Shown: positions 11,798 through 49,561 of the stretch, in pieces | How positions within the stretch are numbered: the stretch's first letter is position 1 | Layout: each line of letters opens with the position of its first letter | Notes under the pieces: generated by a model | Databases searched by the model: none | What the model was told of the DNA's origin: nothing | The model's input: only the letters and a program-made list of their open reading frames with translations | Position numbers and translations under genes: made by a program | Assembly (NCBI GenBank): GCA_044233865.1 | Contig: JBIIJK010000001.1 | Span: 38,465 to 102,464, forward strand | Source: Limnohabitans sp. | GTDB lineage: Bacteria; Pseudomonadota; Gammaproteobacteria; Burkholderiales; Burkholderiaceae_C | Direction: 5' to 3' | Length of the DNA: 64,000 nucleotides

Positions 11798-12271
11798 TTA
11801 GCTTTCGAAGTCTTCGTCGGAGGCGCCAGAAAGTTTCACGACCTTGCGGACGACTTCTGAAGAGAAGCCGCGAGTGAGTAAAAAGCGGTAATGCTTGGCG
11901 CGCGCATTGGCGTCGGCAGCAGGCGTGCCAAACTTGCGCTGCCAAACGCCTTGAGCTCGCGCAAATTCAGAGTCTTTTAAATCGTGCATGGCCTGAGCCA
12001 CTGATTCAGGCGCCAAGCCTTTGGCTTGCAACTCTTGCTTGATGCGCCCATTGCCCAGTTTGCTTGCACGGTGATTGACGACGGACTCTAGAACGCGAGC
12101 TTCATTGATGAAGCCCTTGGCGTGCAAATCGTCTAAAACTTTTGCCAACTCACCTGGCACTTCTTCGTGTGGCGACAGTTTGCGAACCAGCTCAGCCCGT
12201 GAGTGTTCGCGCTGCGACAAAAGCCGCAGCGCACGTCCTTTGAGGGACAACTTAAACCCGGGCTGAGCCAT
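11798..12271 (-). CDS. recX: recombination regulator RecX
   Basis: 157 aa helical-repeat protein immediately downstream of recA. ALRLLSQREHSRAELVRKL is typical of RecX. Confidence 0.88.
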   Translation of the reverse strand: MAQPGFKLSLKGRALRLLSQREHSRAELVRKLSPHEEVPGELAKVLDDLHAKGFINEARVLESVVNHRASKLGNGRIKQELQAKGLAPESVAQAMHDLKDSEFARAQGVWQRKFGTPAADANARAKHYRFLLTRGFSSEVVRKVVKLSGASDEDFES

Positions 12272-12316
12272 TGATCAAGGAGCGCAACTGTGGAAAAGAC
12301 TTAGCAACGCATTTCA

Positions 12317-13345
12317 TTAAGCCGCGTTAACCGCTTCGGCCAGTAAAGGGATGCCCAAAGATTCGCGAACTTTGTTTTCAATTTCGGCGGCCAGTTCTGC
12401 GTTTTCGCGCAGAAACTCACGGGCGTTGTCGCGGCCTTGGCCAATTTTTTCGCCGTTGTAGGCATACCAAGCACCCGACTTATCGATGATTTTGGCTTCG
12501 ACGCCCATGTCGATGATCTCGCCATGGCGGCTGATGCCTTCGCCAAACAAAATGTCGAATTCGGCTGTTTTGAAGGGCGGCGCCACTTTGTTTTTAACCA
12601 CCTTGACCTTGGTCTCGTTGCCAATGGCCTCGTCGCCGCGCTTGATGGTGCCGGTACGGCGAATGTCTAAGCGAACAGAGGCGTAGAACTTGAGGGCATT
12701 GCCGCCGGTGGTGGTTTCGGGGGAGCCGAACATGACGCCAATCTTCATGCGGATTTGGTTGATGAAGATCACCATGCAATTGGTTTTCTTGATCGTGGCG
12801 GTGAGCTTGCGCAAAGCTTGGCTCATGAGGCGTGCTTGCAGGCCAGGCAGTGAGTCGCCCATGTCGCCTTCGAGTTCGGCTTTGGGGGTGAGCGCGGCCA
12901 CAGAGTCGATGACGACCAAGTCGACGGCGCCTGAGCGGACCAAGCTGTCGACAATTTCAAGGGCTTGCTCGCCAGTGTCGGGTTGGCTGATGAGCAGGTC
13001 TTGCAAGTTGACGCCCAGTTTTTGGGCATATTGGATGTCCAGGGCGTGCTCGGCATCGACGAAGGCGCATTGGCCGCCCACTTTTTGCATTTCGGCAATC
13101 ACTTGCAAGGTGAGGGTGGTTTTGCCAGAGGACTCTGGGCCGTATATTTCAACGACGCGCCCGCGAGGCAAACCGCCAACGCCCAAGGCGATGTCAAGGC
13201 CCAAAGAGCCGGTAGACACCACTTGGATGTCTTCGATGACTTCGCCTTCGCCCAAACGCATGATAGTGCCTTTGCCGAATTGTTTTTCAATTTGGGCCAA
13301 GGCTGCTTGCAGGGCTTTGGTTCTGTCGCTGTTTTGCTCGCTCAT
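12317..13345 (-). CDS. recA: recombinase RecA
   Basis: Has the Walker A motif [10 protein letters not shown] and matches the RecA core throughout. I prefer the ATG at 13345, preceded by AGGAG, over the listed 13366 start. Confidence 0.98.
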
Positions 13346-13402
13346 GAAAATCTCCTTGAGAATCAACGGGTTAAAAAGTTTGCACTCAGAATGTTGATCA
13401 AA

Positions 13403-13422
13403 GACTGGATGCTTGAACAGTA
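13403..13422. promoter_or_regulatory. candidate LexA (SOS) box upstream of recA
   Basis: gACTGGatgcttgaACAGTA is CTGG-N8-ACAG, one core mismatch from the CTGT-N8-ACAG consensus used in beta/gammaproteobacteria. It lies about 60 nt upstream of the recA ATG. Confidence 0.4.
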
Positions 13423-13485
13423 CTGTAAACGCATTGTCTCAGGCAGTAAATAGATTTTTTAGTCAGTTTGCTTTACTATTAGCAA

Positions 13486-14004
13486 ATGCCAGTCAATGAC
13501 AGTTCAGCGCCGAATTTAGAGCCCAGAGATGCGCTGACGGTCGCTTTGGACGATCGCTGGCGTGAGACCCATTTGGGTCGCCTACTAGGGCATGCAATGC
13601 GCAGATTTGATGCGCGCGTTTTGAGCCTGATGGCCAACAACGACCAAGTGCCATTGGCCCTGTCCAACTTGGCGGCCAGAGATCAAATCAGTGCAGCCCA
13701 CATTCACATCACGCGCCATTTGTCGCTGCAGGGTTCAAGGCTGACAGAACTGGCGCAAGCGGCCGGCATGAGCAAGCAAGCCATGGGCAATTTGGTGAAC
13801 CAATGCGAAGCATGGGGCTTGGTCAAAAGAGAAAGTGACTCAAGAGATGCCAGGGCCAGGCAGGTCGTTTTTACGCCAGCAGGCTTGGCATGGTTGGCCG
13901 CATTTCAAATGGCTGTTGCACAGGCGGAAGAAGAGTTCAAGGCCTCAGTGGGCAACGAAGTTGCAACAGTCGTCGCGCTTGGATTAGAAGCCTATTGCAT
14001 GTGA
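13486..14004 (+). CDS. MarR family transcriptional regulator
   Basis: 172 aa with a winged-helix segment (ITRHLSLQGSRLTELAQAAGMSKQAMGNLVNQCEAWGLVKRE..DSRDARARQVVFT). Confidence 0.85.
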   Translation: MPVNDSSAPNLEPRDALTVALDDRWRETHLGRLLGHAMRRFDARVLSLMANNDQVPLALSNLAARDQISAAHIHITRHLSLQGSRLTELAQAAGMSKQAMGNLVNQCEAWGLVKRESDSRDARARQVVFTPAGLAWLAAFQMAVAQAEEEFKASVGNEVATVVALGLEAYCM

Positions 14005-14150
14005 GGCGTTTGCCAAATGGCAAGGCGCATGAAAGCAAACTTAGCACCTGAAGAAAGAATCGACTGCAAAGACCCAGAGTCGCCTAAAATTTGTGCCAGA
14101 CCCTCACAGGGCCTCGCAAAGCCGTTCAATGGCAAAAGCAGGAGACGAAG

Positions 14151-14825
14151 ATGCGTATTTTGATTGCAGAAGACGATCAGGTATTGGCCGATGGCTTGTT
14201 GAGAACCTTGCGCAGCAGTGGCGCCGCAGTGGACCATGTGGCCAGCGGTTCAGAGGCCGATGCGGCCCTCATGACCAACAGCGAATTTGATTTGCTCATT
14301 TTGGATTTGGGCTTGCCCAAAATGCACGGCTTAGAGGTTTTGAAAAAGTTGCGCTCACGGGGTTCTACGCTACCCGTTTTGATTCTGACCGCAGCCGACA
14401 GCGTGGAAGAGCGAGTCAAAGGCTTGGACTACGGCGCAGACGATTACATGGCCAAGCCCTTTAGCTTGCAAGAACTTGAAGCGCGGGTGCGAGCACTGAC
14501 ACGCCGCGGTATGGGTGGGGCCAGTTCACAAATCAAACATGGGCCATTGATCTATGACCAATCTGGCCGTGTGGCCACAATTGACGGCAAGATGGTCGAG
14601 CTCTCGGCGCGTGAATTGGGCTTGCTTGAAGTCTTGCTGCAGCGCGCGGGACGTTTGGTCAGCAAAGACCAATTGGTCGAGCGATTGTGCGAGTGGGGTG
14701 AAGAGGTGAGCAACAATGCCATTGAGGTGTACATCCATCGCCTGCGCAAAAAAATTGAAAAGGGTCCTATTCGCATTGCAACCGTGCGGGGACTGGGTTA
14801 TTGCCTTGAAAAAATACCAGGATAA
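14151..14825 (+). CDS. OmpR-family response regulator (TctD/QseB-like)
   Basis: MRILIAEDDQVLADGL..., the receiver Asp in LLILDLGLP, and a C-terminal winged helix (VYIHRLRKKI...TVRGLGY). The ATG at 14151 is preceded by AGGAG. Confidence 0.93.
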   Translation: MRILIAEDDQVLADGLLRTLRSSGAAVDHVASGSEADAALMTNSEFDLLILDLGLPKMHGLEVLKKLRSRGSTLPVLILTAADSVEERVKGLDYGADDYMAKPFSLQELEARVRALTRRGMGGASSQIKHGPLIYDQSGRVATIDGKMVELSARELGLLEVLLQRAGRLVSKDQLVERLCEWGEEVSNNAIEVYIHRLRKKIEKGPIRIATVRGLGYCLEKIPG

Positions 14826-14849
14826 CGGTGCCTTGAACACCGTGGGTGA

Positions 14850-16322
14850 ATGAGCCGTAAAAATTGGCAAGTGTCTTTTTTTCGCCGCGAACAGCGCTCG
14901 TTGTTTGGCGAAATTTTGGATTGGATGCTCACCCCACTTCTGCTGTTATGGCCAGTGAGCTTGGCGCTCACTTGGTTGGTGGCGCAGGGGCTTGCCAACA
15001 AACCGTTTGACCGCGCCTTGGTCTACAACGTCCAAGCGCTTGCGCAGTTGGTCAAGCTAAGCCCCGATCAACAACGCATTCAATTTAACTTACCCCAGCC
15101 TGCCAGCGAATTGCTGCGTGCCGATGATGCCGACTTGGTGTATTACCAAGTGATTGGACCCAAAGGCGAGCTGCTTGGAGGCGATCGCGATTTGCCGCAA
15201 CCTCAAGACGAGGAAAAACTGGGCAGCTACGATGTCAAAATCCGCGACGATGAAATGCGCAGCCTAGAGGTTCGGGTGGCCTACACATGGGTTCAGTTAA
15301 CTTCTGAAAAGTCGACCTCAGAATTAGGCTCTGTCCTTGTTCAAGTGGCTGAAACTCGAGAAAAAAGATCAGTCTTGGCCACTGAAATTATCAAAGGCGT
15401 CATGCTGCCTCAGTTTGCAATATTGCCCCTGGCTGTCTTGCTGGTTTGGTTGGCTTTGGTCCGCGGCATCAAGCCACTGTCGGAATTGGAAGAGCGCATA
15501 CGCGCCAGAAAATCCGATGACCTGAGTCCTTTGGATGAAAAAACAGTGCCATTGGAAGTGGCCCCGCTGGTGTCCTCAGTGAATGATTTATTACGTCGAT
15601 TAAAAGAGTCGATAGGCACTCAAAAAAGATTTTTAGCCGACGCGGCCCACCAATTGAAAACACCCCTTGCCGGTTTGCGCATGCAAGCTGACTTGGCGCA
15701 AAGAAAAGAAGCTGGAGAAGAAGAGTTAAAACAGTCGCTGCAACAAATTGGTCGCGCGAGTGTGCAAGCTACGCACACCGTCAATCAACTGTTGTCACTG
15801 GCTCGGGCAGAAGGCGCTGGGTCCATAGACTTGCAATCGTGTGACATGGCGGCCTTGATCAGCGAGGTGCTCAATGACTCATTGCCACACGCCATGGAAA
15901 AGGGTTTGGACCTGGGTTATGACGGCGTCGACACAGCTAAAAAACGGCGCTTTTTGACCTTGCAAGGCAACCCGACGCTGCTCAAAGAGATGATTCGAAA
16001 TTTGGTTGACAACGCCATTCATTACACCCCTAGCACCCCCGAGCGAATAGGCGTCATTACAGTGCGCCTTTTGTTAGACCCCTACAGTCAAGCCTTGGCC
16101 GTACAAGTGGAAGACAACGGTCCTGGCATCAGCGCGGCCGAAAGAGAGCGGGTGTTTGAACCCTTTTATCGAGCCTTAGGAACCAATGTAGATGGCTCTG
16201 GCTTGGGCTTGCCCATTGTGCGAGAAATTGCAAAGCGCCATGGCGCCACTGTGACGGTTGAAATGGCACACCCCGGACAGACGCCCCCTGGCGCTTGTTT
16301 CACCATTCGCTTTTCGCGCTAA
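14850..16322 (+). CDS. sensor histidine kinase (TctE-like N-terminal sensor domain)
   Basis: Two TM segments, an H-box FLADAAHQLKTPL, an N-box NLVDNAIHYT, and a G-box DNGPGI...GSGLGL. Confidence 0.92.
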   Translation: MSRKNWQVSFFRREQRSLFGEILDWMLTPLLLLWPVSLALTWLVAQGLANKPFDRALVYNVQALAQLVKLSPDQQRIQFNLPQPASELLRADDADLVYYQVIGPKGELLGGDRDLPQPQDEEKLGSYDVKIRDDEMRSLEVRVAYTWVQLTSEKSTSELGSVLVQVAETREKRSVLATEIIKGVMLPQFAILPLAVLLVWLALVRGIKPLSELEERIRARKSDDLSPLDEKTVPLEVAPLVSSVNDLLRRLKESIGTQKRFLADAAHQLKTPLAGLRMQADLAQRKEAGEEELKQSLQQIGRASVQATHTVNQLLSLARAEGAGSIDLQSCDMAALISEVLNDSLPHAMEKGLDLGYDGVDTAKKRRFLTLQGNPTLLKEMIRNLVDNAIHYTPSTPERIGVITVRLLLDPYSQALAVQVEDNGPGISAAERERVFEPFYRALGTNVDGSGLGLPIVREIAKRHGATVTVEMAHPGQTPPGACFTIRFSR

Positions 16323-16998: not shown

Positions 16999-17177
16999 GA
17001 GATTTTCCTCGTGATGATCACGTTGTCGGGCTGGATCTGTTGCAAAGTGCGCGAGGGTTCACGCGCACTTTCAGGCGCGAAACCCCAGGCTTCAAAGAGG
17101 CCATCGCGCCAACCATACAACAGCGCATTTGACAGCATCAAGACCAGAATCAACCATCGCAATTTCAAGTGTTTCAT
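16995..17177 (-). CDS. small membrane protein (60 aa)
   Basis: Has a single TM segment (LRWLILVLMLSNALLYGW). ATGA start/stop overlaps with birA upstream and the GST gene downstream argue for real translation. Confidence 0.5.
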   Translation of the reverse strand: MKHLKLRWLILVLMLSNALLYGWRDGLFEAWGFAPESAREPSRTLQQIQPDNVIITRKIS

Positions 17178-17947
17178 TTTGGCCGAACACTCACTTCTGC
17201 GCTACTGACTTTCACTCGACCTTTGGGCGTGTCAATTTGCATGGCGCCTTGATCGTCCACGCCAGCACACAAACCGACCAGCCCATCGCTGGTTGCGACG
17301 TCCAAACCGCAAAGTGCGTCGCGCGCATTGAAGCGTTCTTGTAAGGGGCTGAAGCCGTTTGCTTCAAAGCTTCTCAAAGCGTCTAGCAAGGGCTTCACAA
17401 CGCGTTCTAAAGCCAAGGGCGCGCTGACGCCTTGCCAAAACTCAGAGAGAGCCGCAGGAGGCGCTCGGAGGTCTTTGTTGGCGGGCCGTTGGATGTTCAA
17501 GCCGATGCCGATCACGGCATAGCTTTGGTCGCCTTGGCTGGCGGCCTCAATCAAGATGCCGCCGAGCTTTCTTTGATGGCACCACAAGTCATTGGGCCAC
17601 TTGAGTTGGATGTCCTCACCCAGCGACTCAGCCAAGCTGAGCCCGACAGCCAGCGAAAGACCGGACCAATTGCTGGGGTGGTAGGGCAAGCCGATGGAAA
17701 AAGTAAGTGCATGCCCAGGCTCGCCAACCCAAGCGCGCCCTTGACGTCCGCGCCCTGCCGATTGGCGCTCTGCGAGCAACAAAATAGGATCGAGGCAGCC
17801 TTGTCGGGCACGCCGCATCAGTTCGCTGTTGGTGGAGTCAATCTCTGGCAGGATCTCGATGCTGAATCCTGGCCATTGCGGTACCACGGACTGCCAGATG
17901 GCTTCCGCGGGCCAGCGTTGATGGGGAGCCCCAGAGTTCAATGTCAC
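17174..17947 (-). CDS. birA: biotin--[acetyl-CoA-carboxylase] ligase
   Basis: 257 aa with the GRGRQGR(AW) biotin-binding motif. There is no N-terminal HTH domain, so it looks like a group I ligase. Confidence 0.9.
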   Translation of the reverse strand: MTLNSGAPHQRWPAEAIWQSVVPQWPGFSIEILPEIDSTNSELMRRARQGCLDPILLLAERQSAGRGRQGRAWVGEPGHALTFSIGLPYHPSNWSGLSLAVGLSLAESLGEDIQLKWPNDLWCHQRKLGGILIEAASQGDQSYAVIGIGLNIQRPANKDLRAPPAALSEFWQGVSAPLALERVVKPLLDALRSFEANGFSPLQERFNARDALCGLDVATSDGLVGLCAGVDDQGAMQIDTPKGRVKVSSAEVSVRPK

Positions 17948-17968
17948 CTCAATTCAGTTCTGTACCGA

Positions 17969-18592
17969 TCAGGCCGCTTTTTTCTTCACGATCTTCAGCT
18001 CTTTTTTGAGCTTCTTGATTTTCTTTTCAATCTTTTTGATTTGGCTGGGAATCTTGGGGGTGGCGGGTCTGCGTTTGGGGGCCAGCAAAGTTTTGCGGCA
18101 ATTGACACTGCCACACCAGCAGGGGTATTCCGCCTTCAGCTTAGGCGTGTAGGGCTCGTCAATGATCAAGCCATAGTCGTAATTGAGCTCTTCCCCGGCC
18201 TTGATGTTGCGCAGGGCCTTGATGTAGATGCGGTCATTTTCTTCATCGGCCTCGCAATTAGGGTTGCAGCTGTGATTGATCCACCTCGAAGAGTTGCCGC
18301 CATGCAAAGCGTCAATGACCCTGTCTTCGTTCACATGGAAATAAAAGGTGTGGTTGGGGTCTGCGGGGTCGTGAGGGTGGCGGTCTTGCGCTTCATCCCA
18401 GCTGATGATCTCACCCACATACTCGTACAAGGTCTCGCCTTCTGCAATGTCTATAAGTGCAAATACACCTTTGCCGTGCACACCAGAGCGACGCACCTGC
18501 ACCCGACGGCCTGCCCCAGGAGGGGTCAATGACTTGACCTTGGCCGCGGGCTTTAAACTTGATTTTGTCGACAGATGAGTTTTTTTGACCAC
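17969..18592 (-). CDS. SET domain protein-lysine methyltransferase with Lys-rich N- and C-terminal tails
   Basis: GTG start. The SET core reads GKGVFA...GETLYEYVGE...RWINHSCNPNC...GEELNYDY, followed by a post-SET-like CWCGSVNCRK. The tail is KKIEKKIKKLKKELKIVKKKAA. Confidence 0.88.
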   Translation of the reverse strand: MVKKTHLSTKSSLKPAAKVKSLTPPGAGRRVQVRRSGVHGKGVFALIDIAEGETLYEYVGEIISWDEAQDRHPHDPADPNHTFYFHVNEDRVIDALHGGNSSRWINHSCNPNCEADEENDRIYIKALRNIKAGEELNYDYGLIIDEPYTPKLKAEYPCWCGSVNCRKTLLAPKRRPATPKIPSQIKKIEKKIKKLKKELKIVKKKAA

Positions 18593-18620
18593 GGCGTGAA
18601 AAATTTGTTATTGTGAAAAC

Positions 18621-18677
18621 ATGTGGGCGCGCGTGTGCGCGTGCCCGTGTGTGTACACGTGCGCATGCGCGCACGCG
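18621..18677. repeat. alternating purine-pyrimidine (CG/TG) tract in the divergent SET/topB promoter region
   Basis: 18627-18644 is 18 nt of perfect RY alternation. 18646-18677 is 32 nt of perfect YR alternation (CGTGTGTGTACACGTGCGCATGCGCGCACGCG). Nested palindromes are GTGTACAC, CACGTG and GCGCATGCGC. Confidence 0.9.
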
Positions 18678-18694
18678 AGACCGGATTGTATGAG

Positions 18695-21664
18695 ATGAAA
18701 ACATTGGTAATTGCAGAGAAGCCTTCAGTGGCTCAAGATATCGTTCGCGCTTTAACGCCGATCGCAGGTAAATTTGAGAAACACGAGGATCACTTTGAGA
18801 GTGAAACCTATGTGGTCACCAGCGCGGTGGGCCACTTGGTGGAAATTCAGGCCCCTGAGAAATTTGACGTGAAACGCGGCAAGTGGAGCTTTGCCCATTT
18901 GCCCGTCATTCCGCCCTACTTCGACTTAAAGCCGGTCGACAAAACCAAAACGCGCCTGAACGCGGTGGTGAAGCAAGCCAAGCGCAAAGACGTGAACGCC
19001 TTGATCAACGCCTGCGATGCGGGGCGTGAGGGCGAGCTCATCTTTCGGTTGATTGAGCAATATGCAGGCACGCAAAAGGCGGGGCAGACCATTCCGTTGG
19101 GCAAGCCTGTGCAACGCCTGTGGCTTCAGAGCATGACGCCGCAAGCCATTCGCGACGGTTTTGACAAGTTGCGCTCTAACCAACAAATGCAAGGCTTGGC
19201 CGATGCGGCGCGCAGCCGTTCTGAAGCTGATTGGCTGGTGGGCATCAATGGCACCCGTGCAATGACCGCATTCAATTCGCGCGATGGCGGCTTCTTTTTA
19301 ACCACGGTCGGCCGCGTACAAACGCCAACCTTGGCAGTGGTCGTGGTGCGCGAAGAGCAAATTCGACAGTTCATCAGCCGCGATTATTGGGAGGTTCATG
19401 CGCAGTTCGATGCTGCCGCGGGCACCTACCCAGGTAAGTGGTTCAACACCGCATGGAAAAAAGATGCCGAGGACGTAGAAAAAAAGGCAGATCGTGTGTG
19501 GACTGCAGCAGAGGCGCAAGCCATTTTGCAGGCCGTTAAAGGCGCCAAAGCCAGCGTCACAGAAGAGGCCAAGCCCACCTCTCAGGCCAGCCCCCAGTTG
19601 TTTGACTTGACCTCTTTGCAGCGCGAAGCCAACGGTAAATTCGGCTTCTCTGCCAAAACCACCTTGTCGCTGGCGCAGTCTTTGTACGAGCGCCACAAGG
19701 CCCTTACCTACCCGCGTACCGATTCGCGTGCATTGCCCGAAGATTATTTGCCGGTGGCCAAGGACACCTTCAACATGTTGGCCGACAGCGGCATGAAGCA
19801 TTTGGCACCGCATGCCCTCACGGCGCTCAACAACGGCTATATCAAGCCCTCTAAGCGTATTTTTGACAATGCCAAGGTCAGCGATCACTTTGCGATCATT
19901 CCTACCTTGCAGGCCCCTTCTGGCTTGTCTGATGCGGAGCAAAAGTTGTATGACCTGGTGGTGCGCCGCTTCATGGCGGTGTTTTTCCCAAGCGCCGAGT
20001 ACATGGTGACCACGCGCATCAGCACGGCGGCAGGACACAGTTTCAAAACCGAAGGCAAGGTCTTGGTCAAGCCCGGTTGGTTGGCCATTTACGGCAAAGA
20101 AGCGGCCGATGAGGTGGACGATGCCAAAGAAGGTGACAAAGGACAAAATTTGGTGGCCGTGGCGCCAGGTGAGCAAGTGGGTGTGGGCTCCGTTGAAAGC
20201 AAGCCCCTCAAAACACGTCCGCCGGCCCGCTATTCAGAAGCCACCTTGCTGGGCGCCATGGAAGGTGCAGGCAAGATGGTTGACGACGACGAGTTGCGCG
20301 AAGCCATGCAAGAAAAAGGTTTGGGTACACCTGCTACACGTGCGGCCATCATTGAGGGATTGATCAATGAAAAATACATTTTGCGCGATGGTCGCGAAAT
20401 GATTCCAACCGCCAAAGCGTTCCAGTTGATGACCTTGTTGCGTGGCCTGGGCGTGGAAGAGTTGTCCAAGCCAGAGCTCACGGGGGAGTGGGAATACAAG
20501 CTGTCGCAAATGGAGCAAGGCAAACTCAGCCGAGAAGACTTCATGCAGCAGATTGCCAACATGACCGAGCACATCGTCAAAAAGGCCAAAGAGTACGACC
20601 GCGACACCATACCCGGTGACTACGCCACCTTGAGCACACCCTGCCCCACTTGCGGCGGTATCGTGAGAGAAAACTATCGTCGGTATGCCTGTGTTGGTAA
20701 AGATGCTGCGTCAGATGACACGGCTGCTGCCGGTTGTGGTTTCTCATTTGGCAAAACACCTGCAGGCCGAACTTTTGAACAAGCTGAAGTTGAGCAATTC
20801 TTGCGCGACAAAAAGATTGGACCTTTAGAAGGCTTCCGCTCCAAGGCGGGCTGGCCATTCACCTCTGAAATTGCACTGAAGTACAACGAAGAAGAGAAAA
20901 ACTGGAAGCTCGAGTTTGACTTTGGCAACGACAAAAACAGCGAAGAGACCGGCGAAATTGTCGACTTCACAGGCAGCGAATCTTTGGGCGCATGTCCCAA
21001 ATGCAGCGGTGCTGTGCATGAGCATGGCAGCAATTACATTTGCGAAAAAGCCGTACCCACAGAAGGTCAACCCACACCCACGTGTAATTTCAAAAGCGGC
21101 AAAATTGTGTTGCAGCAAGTAGTGGAGCGCGAGCAAATTGCCAAATTGCTGAGCGACGGCAAAACCGATTTGCTAGAAAAGTTTGTGAGCAATCGAACGC
21201 GCCGCGCCTTCAAGGCTTTCTTGTCGTGGAATGCCGAAGAAGACAAAGTGGTGTTTGAGTTTGAGCCCCGCAAGAGCAAGTTTCCGCCGCGCAAAACACC
21301 AGCGAAATATGCAGCTGGCGCTAAAACAGCGGCTGGAAAAACGGCGAGTAAGGCCGCAGCTAAAACCACCAAAGCTCCTGCCAAAAAAGCAGCCGCCAAG
21401 AAAACGGCTGCAGCCAAAACACCACGCAAAGCGGCAGTCGGCAACCTTACGCCCAGCGCCGATTTGGCCGCAGTGATTGGTACCGACAAAGTGGCGCGCA
21501 CAGAAGTGGTGAAGAAGTTATGGGACTACATCAAGGCGCAAGGCTTGCAAGACCCTACCAACAAACGCGCCATCAATGCCGATGCCAAACTCAAACCTGT
21601 GTTTGGCAAAGACCAAATCACGATGTTTGAATTGGCGGGGTTAATTGGCAAGCACCTGAGTTGA
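18695..21664 (+). CDS. topB: DNA topoisomerase III with C-terminal zinc ribbons, Ala/Lys-rich tract and SWIB/MDM2 domain
   Basis: Opens with the TOPRIM N-terminus MKTLVIAEKPSVAQDI and has the type IA core. Carries CxxC zinc ribbons (CPTCGG, CPKCSG) and the AK-rich stretch AKYAAGAKTAAGKTASKAAAKTTKAPAKKAAAKKTAAAKTPRKAA. It ends with a SWIB-like segment, LTPSADLAAVIGTDKVARTEVVKKLWDYIKAQGLQDP...MFELAGLIGKHL. The ORF-track start at 18623 reads through the RY tract and is unlikely. Confidence 0.93.
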   Translation: MKTLVIAEKPSVAQDIVRALTPIAGKFEKHEDHFESETYVVTSAVGHLVEIQAPEKFDVKRGKWSFAHLPVIPPYFDLKPVDKTKTRLNAVVKQAKRKDVNALINACDAGREGELIFRLIEQYAGTQKAGQTIPLGKPVQRLWLQSMTPQAIRDGFDKLRSNQQMQGLADAARSRSEADWLVGINGTRAMTAFNSRDGGFFLTTVGRVQTPTLAVVVVREEQIRQFISRDYWEVHAQFDAAAGTYPGKWFNTAWKKDAEDVEKKADRVWTAAEAQAILQAVKGAKASVTEEAKPTSQASPQLFDLTSLQREANGKFGFSAKTTLSLAQSLYERHKALTYPRTDSRALPEDYLPVAKDTFNMLADSGMKHLAPHALTALNNGYIKPSKRIFDNAKVSDHFAIIPTLQAPSGLSDAEQKLYDLVVRRFMAVFFPSAEYMVTTRISTAAGHSFKTEGKVLVKPGWLAIYGKEAADEVDDAKEGDKGQNLVAVAPGEQVGVGSVESKPLKTRPPARYSEATLLGAMEGAGKMVDDDELREAMQEKGLGTPATRAAIIEGLINEKYILRDGREMIPTAKAFQLMTLLRGLGVEELSKPELTGEWEYKLSQMEQGKLSREDFMQQIANMTEHIVKKAKEYDRDTIPGDYATLSTPCPTCGGIVRENYRRYACVGKDAASDDTAAAGCGFSFGKTPAGRTFEQAEVEQFLRDKKIGPLEGFRSKAGWPFTSEIALKYNEEEKNWKLEFDFGNDKNSEETGEIVDFTGSESLGACPKCSGAVHEHGSNYICEKAVPTEGQPTPTCNFKSGKIVLQQVVEREQIAKLLSDGKTDLLEKFVSNRTRRAFKAFLSWNAEEDKVVFEFEPRKSKFPPRKTPAKYAAGAKTAAGKTASKAAAKTTKAPAKKAAAKKTAAAKTPRKAAVGNLTPSADLAAVIGTDKVARTEVVKKLWDYIKAQGLQDPTNKRAINADAKLKPVFGKDQITMFELAGLIGKHLS

Positions 21665-48834: not shown

Positions 48835-49060
48835 TTCATGAAAAACACGTCTAATCCCAAGTATTTAAAGGCCTTTCAGAGAATTTACTTGCCAAACACT
48901 TTGTTTTGTGGCCCATAATGGGTTAGCTCACGTCTTAAGGCGTGTGCTTTGTTCGCGGTGTACAGGTGTCAGTTTCGCTTCCTTCCGAGGTTTTTAGGTT
49001 TGTTGATGCGTTTTTGGGGCTCCATCGCTTTTGTTTTTGTGTTTAGAGGAGTCCCTTTCA

Positions 49061-49561
49061 ATGGGCAAAAAACTATACGTCGGCAATCTGCCGTACTCGG
49101 TTCGTGACGGCGATTTAGAGCAGGCCTTCGGCCAGTTCGGTTCAGTAACCAGCGCCAAAGTCATGATGGAACGCGACACAGGTCGCTCAAAAGGCTTCGG
49201 CTTTGTGGAAATGGGTTCTGATGAAGAAGCCCAATCTGCAATCAACGGCATGAACGGTCAGCCTTTGGGCGGTCGCAGTGTTGTTGTCAACGAAGCACGT
49301 CCCATGGAAGAGCGTCCTCCCCGTTCCGGTGGCGGTGGCTTTGGTGGCGGCGGCGGTCGTCGTGAAGGCGGTGGCGGCGGTTATGGCGGCGGCGGCGGCG
49401 GCGGTTACGGCGGTGGCGGCGGCGGTTATGGCGGCGGCGGTGGTGGTCGTCGTGAAGGCGGCGGCGAGTCCGGCTTTCGTAGCCCGTACGGCTCAGGCCC
49501 ACGTGGCGGCGGCGGTGGCAATGGTGGTGGCGGTCGTCGCGAAGGCGGCGGCGGTTATTAA
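49061..49561 (+). CDS. RRM-type RNA-binding protein with Gly/Arg/Tyr-rich C-terminal tail
   Basis: RNP2 KLYVGNLPY and RNP1 KGFGFVEM. The ATG at 49061 is preceded by GAGGAG. The C-terminal roughly 85 aa are almost entirely G with RREGGG and GGYGG repeats. Confidence 0.93.
   Translation: MGKKLYVGNLPYSVRDGDLEQAFGQFGSVTSAKVMMERDTGRSKGFGFVEMGSDEEAQSAINGMNGQPLGGRSVVVNEARPMEERPPRSGGGGFGGGGGRREGGGGGYGGGGGGGYGGGGGGYGGGGGGRREGGGESGFRSPYGSGPRGGGGGNGGGGRREGGGGY

Follow-up and report, generated by a model that had tools for sequence, protein, structure and literature searches.

In a 64,000-nt stretch of the genome of a Limnohabitans sp. (contig JBIIJK010000001.1, positions 38,465 to 102,464; hereafter the window), the gene for a SET-domain protein lysine methyltransferase (SET) and topB, encoding DNA topoisomerase III, are divergent, with start codons 102 bp apart. 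SET is followed on its own strand, after 21 nt, by the biotin-protein ligase gene birA. This order, topB<- ->SET->birA, was retained in 105/105 related loci, with SET identity down to 47% and TopB identity of 67-100%. Between topB and SET lie two facing promoter-like hexamers and an alternating purine-pyrimidine tract with a predicted propensity to form Z-DNA. Taken together, topB and SET-birA make up a real, clade-specific and probably co-regulated unit, whose mechanism we infer from these features. The original prediction had drawn attention to the SET-topB pair and its shared control region; the linkage of SET to birA was absent from it, as was the alternating tract. The features of the locus are as follows.

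17174..17947, minus strand: birA, biotin-protein ligase without an N-terminal helix-turn-helix (Pfam BPL_LplA_LipB 1.9e-15, and BPL_C)
17969..18592, minus strand: SET-domain protein lysine methyltransferase, 207 aa (Pfam SET, E 6.7e-25)
18585..18614, plus strand: putative topB promoter (-35 TTGACC at 18585-18590, 18 nt spacer, extended -10 TGtTATTGT at 18606-18614)
18622..18678, no strand assigned: alternating purine-pyrimidine (CG/TG/CA) tract, Z-DNA-prone, with perfect runs at 18627-18644 (18 nt) and 18646-18677 (32 nt)
18685..18690, minus strand: putative -10 of the SET-birA promoter, ATTGTA (TACAAT on the SET strand), from conservation
18695..21664, plus strand: topB, DNA topoisomerase III, 989 aa (NCBIfam PRK14724, Pfam domains)

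Conservation of the gene order was measured in two samples. A SET-anchored scan of GTDB, in which each species was represented by one genome, gave 80 loci at SET identities of 60-98%, the nearest genome locus being that of a Limnohabitans metagenome-assembled genome (98%). All belong to Comamonadaceae (Limnohabitans, Acidovorax, Rhodoferax, Variovorax, Polaromonas, Hydrogenophaga, Comamonas, Ramlibacter and others) or the Rubrivivax/Leptothrix group (Roseateles, Piscinibacter, Methylibium, Ideonella, Rhizobacter). Including two further contigs, all 82 of 82 SET-anchored loci had topB<- ->SET->birA, with birA found wherever the contig reaches, and the genes of two SET proteins at much greater distance (47% and 56% identity) stand in the identical arrangement. 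Because a SET-anchored sample is blind to loci that lack SET, a metagenome scan was anchored on the TopB N-terminus. It gave 80 loci, 21 in the clade and 59 outgroup. SET and birA were upstream of topB in 21/21 of the former, whose TopB core is 67-83% identical to that of the window, and neither gene was upstream in the outgroup loci, where the core is 56-68% identical.

Retention of neighbouring genes was measured by tblastn with the window's own genes, clustering of open reading frames (ORFs) having been dropped as too noisy in high-GC DNA. Within the available flanks SET was retained in 83/83 loci, topB in 67/67 and birA in 77/78. Other neighbours were less retained: gapA in 28%, GST in 17%, the sensor kinase (HK) in 63% and recA in 45%. 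With the triad kept and the flanks at 17-63%, topB-SET-birA is thus a conserved core in a rearranging neighbourhood. On the birA side (window 11798-16322) are recA-recX, a MarR-type regulator and a two-component system, which 37-63% of related loci retain near the triad, more than anything on the side of topB. From the SET stop to the birA start, the median distance across loci is 12 nt, and values of -4 (a 4-nt overlap) or +1 to +3 are frequent; these short gaps and overlaps indicate that SET and birA form an operon.

Outgroup topB genes often follow a co-directional ORF of ~150-160 aa (L116-L176). A search by signature alone found an Smg-like signature in 14 of the 53 evaluable loci, and the three shown start MFDVLVYLYETYY. 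We take this to be the dprA-smg position, the one occupied by topA in E. coli. Evidently the ancestor of the Comamonadaceae and the Rubrivivax group moved topB next to SET-birA, and the distribution of sequences places the origin of the SET-topB pairing there, once.

The control region was noted in the window and in L001-L083, L095 and L097-L115, and counts are given for 84 loci. On the topB side, TTGACC-18-TGtTATTGT has 9/12 consensus matches and is the sole sigma-70-like match in 17900-18900. Its -35 overlaps the GTG start codon of SET (18590-18592), an overlap that could alone make the arrangement hard to break. TGnTAnnnT recurs at the matching position in most loci, with variable inner positions. 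On the SET-birA side, ATTGTA was present in 77/84 loci. The variants AGTATA, ATTCTA and ATTTTA (six loci) retain T-A-n-A-n-T on the SET strand, whilst a fourth, AGTTTA, occurs in L083 alone, where no left hexamer was found, and retains only TAnnnT. The invariant positions of ATTGTA are those most conserved in a -10 element. The two hexamers lie 41-76 nt apart (median 60), and ATTGTA lies 3-620 nt from the topB ATG. Both are putative promoter elements, one for topB and one for SET-birA, and the original prediction of a shared control region is borne out by the conserved hexamers and the tract between topB and SET. With facing hexamers on either side of the tract, both leaders would run through it and be antisense to one another over ~30-60 nt.

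Two variations on this region were seen. In L010 (6294-6956, minus strand) and L047 (6372-7160, minus strand), an inserted thioredoxin-like gene separates the control module from topB. Its product is of TlpA/ResA type with a signal peptide and a WCPFC motif; the stop of the gene overlaps the topB ATG, and the two are translationally coupled. Hexamer-topB spacers are comparably long in L045, L053, L114 and L115. In Acidovorax-type loci (L008, L012, L022, L027, L036), a short GC-rich hairpin (for example CCCGGAG...CTCCGGG) stands just 3' of ATTGTAG in the topB leader; by eye, the stem sequence varies between loci and the pairing is retained.

The 18- and 32-nt runs of the tract are the sole alternating runs of at least 14 nt in the window. 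A tract of 30-60 bp was found in ~80/84 loci, with perfect runs of up to 47 nt; its sequence differs from locus to locus and its alternation is kept. Runs of at least 15 nt numbered 99 in 15.7 kb of topB-SET intergenic DNA versus 15 in 964 kb of flanking sequence, an enrichment of ~400-fold. We estimated the critical superhelical density (sigma) for the B-to-Z transition with a rough model that uses published dinucleotide energies and a 10-kb domain. The predicted sigma was -0.035 for the window and had a median of -0.036 over loci, compared with a median of -0.054 and a best value of -0.045 for 353 background tiles of the window; 80/84 loci were less negative than every tile. Within the tract, transitions and transversions stood at 122:22, against 477:1270 at topB fourfold sites, and 42/44 indels were of even length. 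This test is partly circular, as aligning alternating sequences forces in-phase matches, and the figures merely restate that it is a property of the tract that is conserved. Five outgroup loci without SET (L138, L162, L164, L167, L171) also carry alternating tracts, of 21-31 nt and mostly palindromic, ~70-130 nt upstream of topB. They lie after the smg or dprA stop and before the likely topB promoter. The tract thus appears tied to topB and not to SET. A survey of Z-DNA motifs across genomes makes no mention of such a tract.

The tract also bears on where TopB begins. The listed topB ORF runs from 18623 to 21664 (plus strand), and its 24 additional codons are translated alternating tract. Homologues all begin at the ATG at 18695 (MKTLVIAEKP) and the NCBIfam models align from residue 25 of the listed ORF, so this ATG is almost certainly the start. 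The protein is organised as follows, all on the plus strand.

~18701-19069: Toprim domain (Pfam)
~19184-20548: type IA core with the active-site motif LTYPRTDSR (Pfam)
~20732-21270: Zn-ribbon/Toprim_Crpt repeats (Pfam, two Toprim_Crpt matches)
21275-21439: Ala/Lys/Pro linker (composition)
~21449-21658: SWIB domain (Pfam)

The type IA assignment and the C-terminal SWIB domain, both claimed from the letters of the window, were upheld by profile searches. Toprim and Topoisom_bac (3.7e-111) matched, and SWIB (PF02201) scored 92.5 bits against a cut-off of 25 (E 1.4e-26) over profile positions 4-74 of 74. The closest PDB match of the SWIB domain is yeast UAF30 (2.5e-14), and BAF60-type SWIB domains are also related. 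PRK14724 'DNA topoisomerase III' matched TopB over all 988 model positions (1942 bits, cut-off 1088) and TIGR01056 scored 558 (cut-off 515.75). As PRK14724 matches at full length, linker and SWIB included, the TopB-linker-SWIB architecture was already catalogued; a literature search for SWIB together with topoisomerase III found no paper on it.

The linker of 55 aa, with 16 Lys or Arg residues, is the sole Ala/Lys/Pro tract in six frames of the window. The claim that it resembles histone H1 holds for its composition (71% Ala, Lys and Pro) and no further: no H1 or HC2 Pfam match was obtained on TopB at E <= 0.01, and the likeness is compositional only. A Lys/Ala-rich tail was present in nearly every complete TopB of the clade, whether it bears SWIB or not, the exceptions being L057 (a short ORF of 769 aa) and L078 (a tail with just 23% Ala, Lys and Pro). 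In Comamonadaceae a basic segment of 41-69 aa stands ahead of SWIB.

The SET protein was examined by sequence and by predicted structure. Its parts, all on the minus strand, are these.

18512-18592: N-tail, basic, predicted disordered
18068-18511: SET/post-SET core, ~aa 28-175
17972-18067: C-tail, Lys-rich, residues 176-207, predicted helical

The motifs on which the SET assignment had been based, RWINHSCNPNC, GEELNYDY and the post-SET CWCGSVNC, are carried by the ORF, as are the N-terminal KKTHLSTKSSLKPAAKVK and the C-terminal KKIEKKIKKLKKELKIVKKKAA. Pfam SET (PF00856) matched with 88 bits (cut-off 22.4) over profile positions 1-105 of 105. The best PDB sequence relatives are the SET domains of MLL1-4 (MLL1 E 2.7e-23), with NHSC, ELxYDY and CxCx4C aligned. 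The SAM-binding and catalytic motifs HGKGVFA (GxG region), NHSC and EELNYDY, and the post-SET Cys cluster CWCGSVNC, align to MLL1 motifs and are invariant across the clade alignment. An AlphaFold2 model made from a shallow alignment of close relatives (pLDDT 46) was set aside for one from a diverse alignment, with a mean pLDDT of 88.6, above 90 in the core (~residues 30-175) and 53-68 in the N-tail. Foldseek with this model returned SET domains for all of its top 50 matches, led by MLL1, MLL3 and MLL4 (best MLL1, E 7.6e-14). By sequence and predicted fold, the window SET is thus an MLL-like lysine methyltransferase whose SET and post-SET parts are intact. Mono- or di-methylation is its predicted activity, as suggested by a Tyr at the Phe/Tyr-switch position.

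The model renders the C-tail as one long confident helix (183-206) and not as a disordered H1-like tail. This helix is amphipathic in the window, with Ile, Leu or Val every 3-4 residues; other lineages have true Ala/Lys-rich (AK-rich) tails or none. Many orthologues have merely 6-13 neutral N-terminal and 3-7 C-terminal residues and are essentially tail-less, so that methylation by SET of its own tail, one of the functions first proposed, cannot be general. Many unrelated SET homologues also carry basic AK-rich tails, and the SET proteins of L092 (7001-7675) and L093, which have a long Lys-rich N-terminal extension, give a weak Pfam HC2 match. This recurrence and the weak HC2 match fit an association with the nucleoid or with DNA, and are suggestive.

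Our preferred reading combines two parts, and we put its probability at roughly 0.38. In this combined model, SET would be an intracellular enzyme that methylates Lys-rich nucleoid-associated proteins, the Lys-rich tail of TopB being the lead candidate, and the shared control region would respond to supercoiling. Methylation of the TopB tail by SET is plausible, and an analogy is the lysine methylation of the Ala/Lys/Pro repeats of mycobacterial HBHA. Precedents reported in a review (PMC3980110) are chlamydial cpnSET, which binds the H1-like Hc1 and methylates it, and Go1-SET, whose substrate is MC1-alpha. In the control region, the tract would link expression of both units to local negative supercoiling and to each other, the coupling passing through a B-to-Z transition, promoter interference or both. 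Once both polymerases have cleared it, the tract would lie behind the diverging units, where negative supercoils would build up, as the twin-domain model predicts for two diverging transcription units. Z-DNA can block RNA polymerase, and tracts of similar size flip in vivo in E. coli behind active promoters. Z-DNA formation at the tract and co-regulation of the two units are predictions of this model, and a supercoiling-sensing element at a topoisomerase gene is a coherent proposal, which the tracts of the five SET-less outgroup loci support. In its strongest form, the tract would be a natural Z-DNA switch that flips when negative supercoiling builds up, globally or behind the diverging polymerases, and resets initiation of topB and SET-birA, whilst the co-expressed SET would methylate the TopB tail to tune its binding to DNA. 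We regard this version as improbable. If true, two firsts would follow: a natural bacterial promoter under the control of Z-DNA, and an endogenous substrate of a SET enzyme from free-living bacteria. No natural bacterial promoter is known to have been shown to be Z-DNA-controlled.

Several findings weigh against this model. SET homologues outside the clade exist without an adjacent topB, which was beside SET in 0/11 distant SET contexts. SET was upstream of topB in 0/53 evaluable outgroup loci (with at least 800 nt of upstream sequence). The SET-topB adjacency that we were led to survey thus recurs in 105 further loci of one clade only. Within the clade, SET is linked to birA as tightly as to topB. 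The Lys-rich tails of SET, present in the window as first described, are lineage-specific, with a C-tail ranging from 3 aa ('RGR') to ~100 aa. Rubrivivax-group TopB proteins lack SWIB and end in a basic tail of 15-58 aa, and their loci still keep SET. The three chromatin-type domains therefore do not travel as a conserved set: SWIB falls outside the conserved relationship, to which the basic tail of TopB could belong, the Lys/Ala-rich tail being what is conserved instead. In the control region, no recognisable -35 was seen for the putative SET promoter on reading the sequences of the loci. Four loci (L014, L035, L064, L083) lack the tract, and were recorded as keeping both hexamers, a record that for L083 stands beside the missing left hexamer noted above. 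The tract also has a strand bias, with TG at 406 versus CA at 161 on the topB-sense strand and TG exceeding CA in 62/70 loci (the reverse in 7). Selection for Z-DNA alone does not predict this bias, which points to an RNA-level or transcription-linked effect, such as selection on the RNA or mutation associated with transcription. Finally, an adjacency of single origin could persist merely because overlapping promoters cannot be split safely.

This last point leads to an explanation by frozen synteny, to which we give about the same weight as to the combined model. One rearrangement would have left overlapping promoters and no biochemical coupling, and the targets of SET would lie elsewhere, among ribosomal proteins, EF-Tu or other abundant proteins. 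The single origin of the adjacency in one clade fits this well, as do the co-directional, in part Smg-like, ORF that commonly precedes outgroup topB, the 11 SET contexts without topB, the overlap of the topB -35 with the SET start codon, and the fact that members of the clade can do without the SET tails and without SWIB. It accounts less readily for retention in 105/105 loci over a TopB identity of 67-100% when flanking genes are kept in only 17-63%. Also against it are an Alcaligenaceae-like locus (L173), in which SET stands, independently, second after an AK-tailed topB, and the chlamydial precedent of SET acting on H1-like proteins. A different account concerns the tract alone, which may act as RNA, either as a GU/GC hairpin at the 5' end of topB mRNA or through a 45-60 nt antisense duplex of the two leaders that is processed, or both. 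The TG-rich topB-sense strand agrees with this, as does its more stable folding (mean -23.0 kcal/mol, versus -17.6 for the SET-sense strand, usually as one long hairpin). The tract also lies between the putative start sites and hence in both leaders, and the extra Acidovorax-type hairpin keeps its pairing by eye despite differing stems. However, folding z-scores against dinucleotide-preserving shuffles were small (-0.75 and -0.56), which indicates that the hairpin follows from composition. A search of Rfam with the control region gave no family; TG-repeat miRNA hairpins were the sole matches, all below threshold. Compensated transversions would be acceptable if only a hairpin were selected for, yet alternation is strict, and in the outgroup the tract stands upstream of the likely topB promoter. 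We consider an RNA role somewhat less likely than not, and clearly more probable than the two possibilities that follow.

SET might instead be a secreted effector that methylates histones of eukaryotic grazers or hosts, as LegAS4/RomA, BtSET and NUE do, with its tails serving as nuclear localisation signals. Characterised bacterial SET proteins are mostly effectors of pathogens, the closest structures to the window SET are eukaryotic H3K4/H3K36 methyltransferases, its Lys-rich tails resemble nuclear localisation signals, and its sole NCBIfam match is the Legionella AnkI/LegAS4 model. That match, however, reaches 43 bits against a cut-off of 550, and Pfam finds no ankyrin repeats. SET belongs to the universally retained core of free-living planktonic and soil genera, where it shares an operon with the housekeeping gene birA; many of its orthologues are tail-less, and no secretion-system neighbour was seen in the loci with Pfam calls, the other loci having been searched only for the window's genes. 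An effector role is accordingly very unlikely. We give just as little credence to BirA, and thus cofactor-protein ligation, as the functional partner of SET in place of TopB, for instance with SET methylating BirA or the biotin carrier protein on a lysine. The SET-birA operon is conserved as well as the adjacency to topB, an unrelated SET clade has its gene two upstream of lipB-lipA, and SET of L173 overlaps the panB stop. A ligase is nevertheless found in only 2 of ~12 independent SET contexts, operons of unrelated housekeeping genes are common, and to our knowledge a SET-BirA partnership has no precedent.

The distant SET contexts comprised Caballeronia and Paraburkholderia plasmids, Xanthomonas, six metagenomic loci and Bordetella bronchiseptica. 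A profile search with 48 diverse SET sequences yielded just close relatives from Comamonadaceae and did not help to find such contexts. Plasmid and chromid SET paralogues of Burkholderiaceae were considered as possible topB neighbours and none lay near topB; plasmid topB genes, being distant paralogues at most 47% identical, are uninformative about the chromosomal orthologue. In L173 (375-4377), topB (880 aa, with a long AK-rich C-tail), panB and SET lie on one strand, and the SET start overlaps the panB stop. This SET is 50% identical to that of the window (tblastn) and groups with Orrella, Achromobacter and Bordetella proteins at 70-80% identity. The order topB-panB-SET was rejected as a second conserved linkage, as it is not kept in B. 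bronchiseptica (L177-L179). There a bestrophin-family channel gene adjoins SET (6983-8510), and on the Caballeronia plasmid L084 (5153-7468) a bestrophin-family gene lies two genes from SET. The SET gene of L092 and L093 stands between ybeD (DUF493) and lipB-lipA; the catalytic domain of lipB is PF21948 (LplA-B_cat), which we take to be related to the PF03099 domain of BirA.

Among known systems, the Chlamydiae offer a close parallel. With cpnSET/NUE, Hc1/Hc2, the TopA-SWIB fusion CT643 and a free SWIB, they share a SET protein, a Lys/Ala-rich H1-like segment and a type IA topoisomerase fused to SWIB. That SET, SWIB and a topoisomerase occur together in Chlamydiae has already been read as a chromatin-modifying complex (PMC6426960), and chlamydial reports conflict over Hc1 methylation. 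The window differs in that its topoisomerase is Topo III and not Topo I (191.6 against a cut-off of 868 for the fusion model NF004966), and its H1-like segment sits within the topoisomerase itself. Its genes are physically paired at a shared control region, its hosts are free-living Betaproteobacteria and SWIB is dispensable in one subclade. At the protein level TopB does not differ from the PRK14724/PRK08173 Topo III of Burkholderiales, its SWIB-less relatives being PRK08173.

For SET, the best match in sequence and structure is MLL/KMT2 of Trithorax/COMPASS (Foldseek TM by target 0.65-0.77, 33-36% identity). The window SET is by contrast a stand-alone protein of 207 aa with a ~27-aa, predicted disordered, tail before the core and no other Pfam domain. 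Histones and the WRAD partners of MLL are not expected in a bacterium, and the substrate specificity of MLL is not transferable to this protein. With LegAS4/RomA of Legionella, BtSET of Burkholderia and the LegAS4-like protein of Bordetella it has the bacterial SET core in common; only that core aligns to NF043024, the model whose cut-off it misses, and it has no Ank domain. The Bordetella gene also differs in context, standing beside bestrophin and ribB. In the work of Rahmouni and Wells and of Peck and Wang, (CG)n/(TG)n sequences engineered into E. coli plasmids reportedly formed Z-DNA. The window tract is similar to these in length and composition and would lie behind two diverging polymerases, where transcription-driven negative supercoiling accumulates, but is natural, evolutionarily conserved and located at a topoisomerase gene.

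The individual domains, the TopB-SWIB fusion and the idea of SET, SWIB and topoisomerase belonging together in Chlamydiae were thus known already. New are the strict pairing of SET with topB across a large free-living clade, the finding that SWIB and the SET tails are dispensable whilst the basic tail of TopB and the birA linkage are not, and the conserved Z-prone control module. We found no earlier description of the pairing, the dispensability or the control module in the literature covered, outside which falls the SET-neighbourhood review of Aravind et al. 2011.

Elsewhere in the window, an RRM-type RNA-binding protein (49031-49561, plus strand) has a long Gly/Arg/Tyr-rich (RGG-like) C-terminal tail, another eukaryote-like low-complexity tail. 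This tail accounts for the anomalous composition at 48-50 kb (GC skew 0.14, AT skew -0.19).

The role of SET enzymes in free-living bacteria is puzzling, and this locus gives them a concrete candidate target. The gene pair is universal among the sampled culturable genera Acidovorax, Variovorax, Comamonas, Hydrogenophaga and Limnohabitans. The control region holds a rare element prone to non-B DNA, in which a physical property and not a sequence is conserved over ~100 species, at a gene of DNA topology. If the control region is functional, a natural bacterial system would connect Z-DNA and promoter interference with supercoiling homeostasis.

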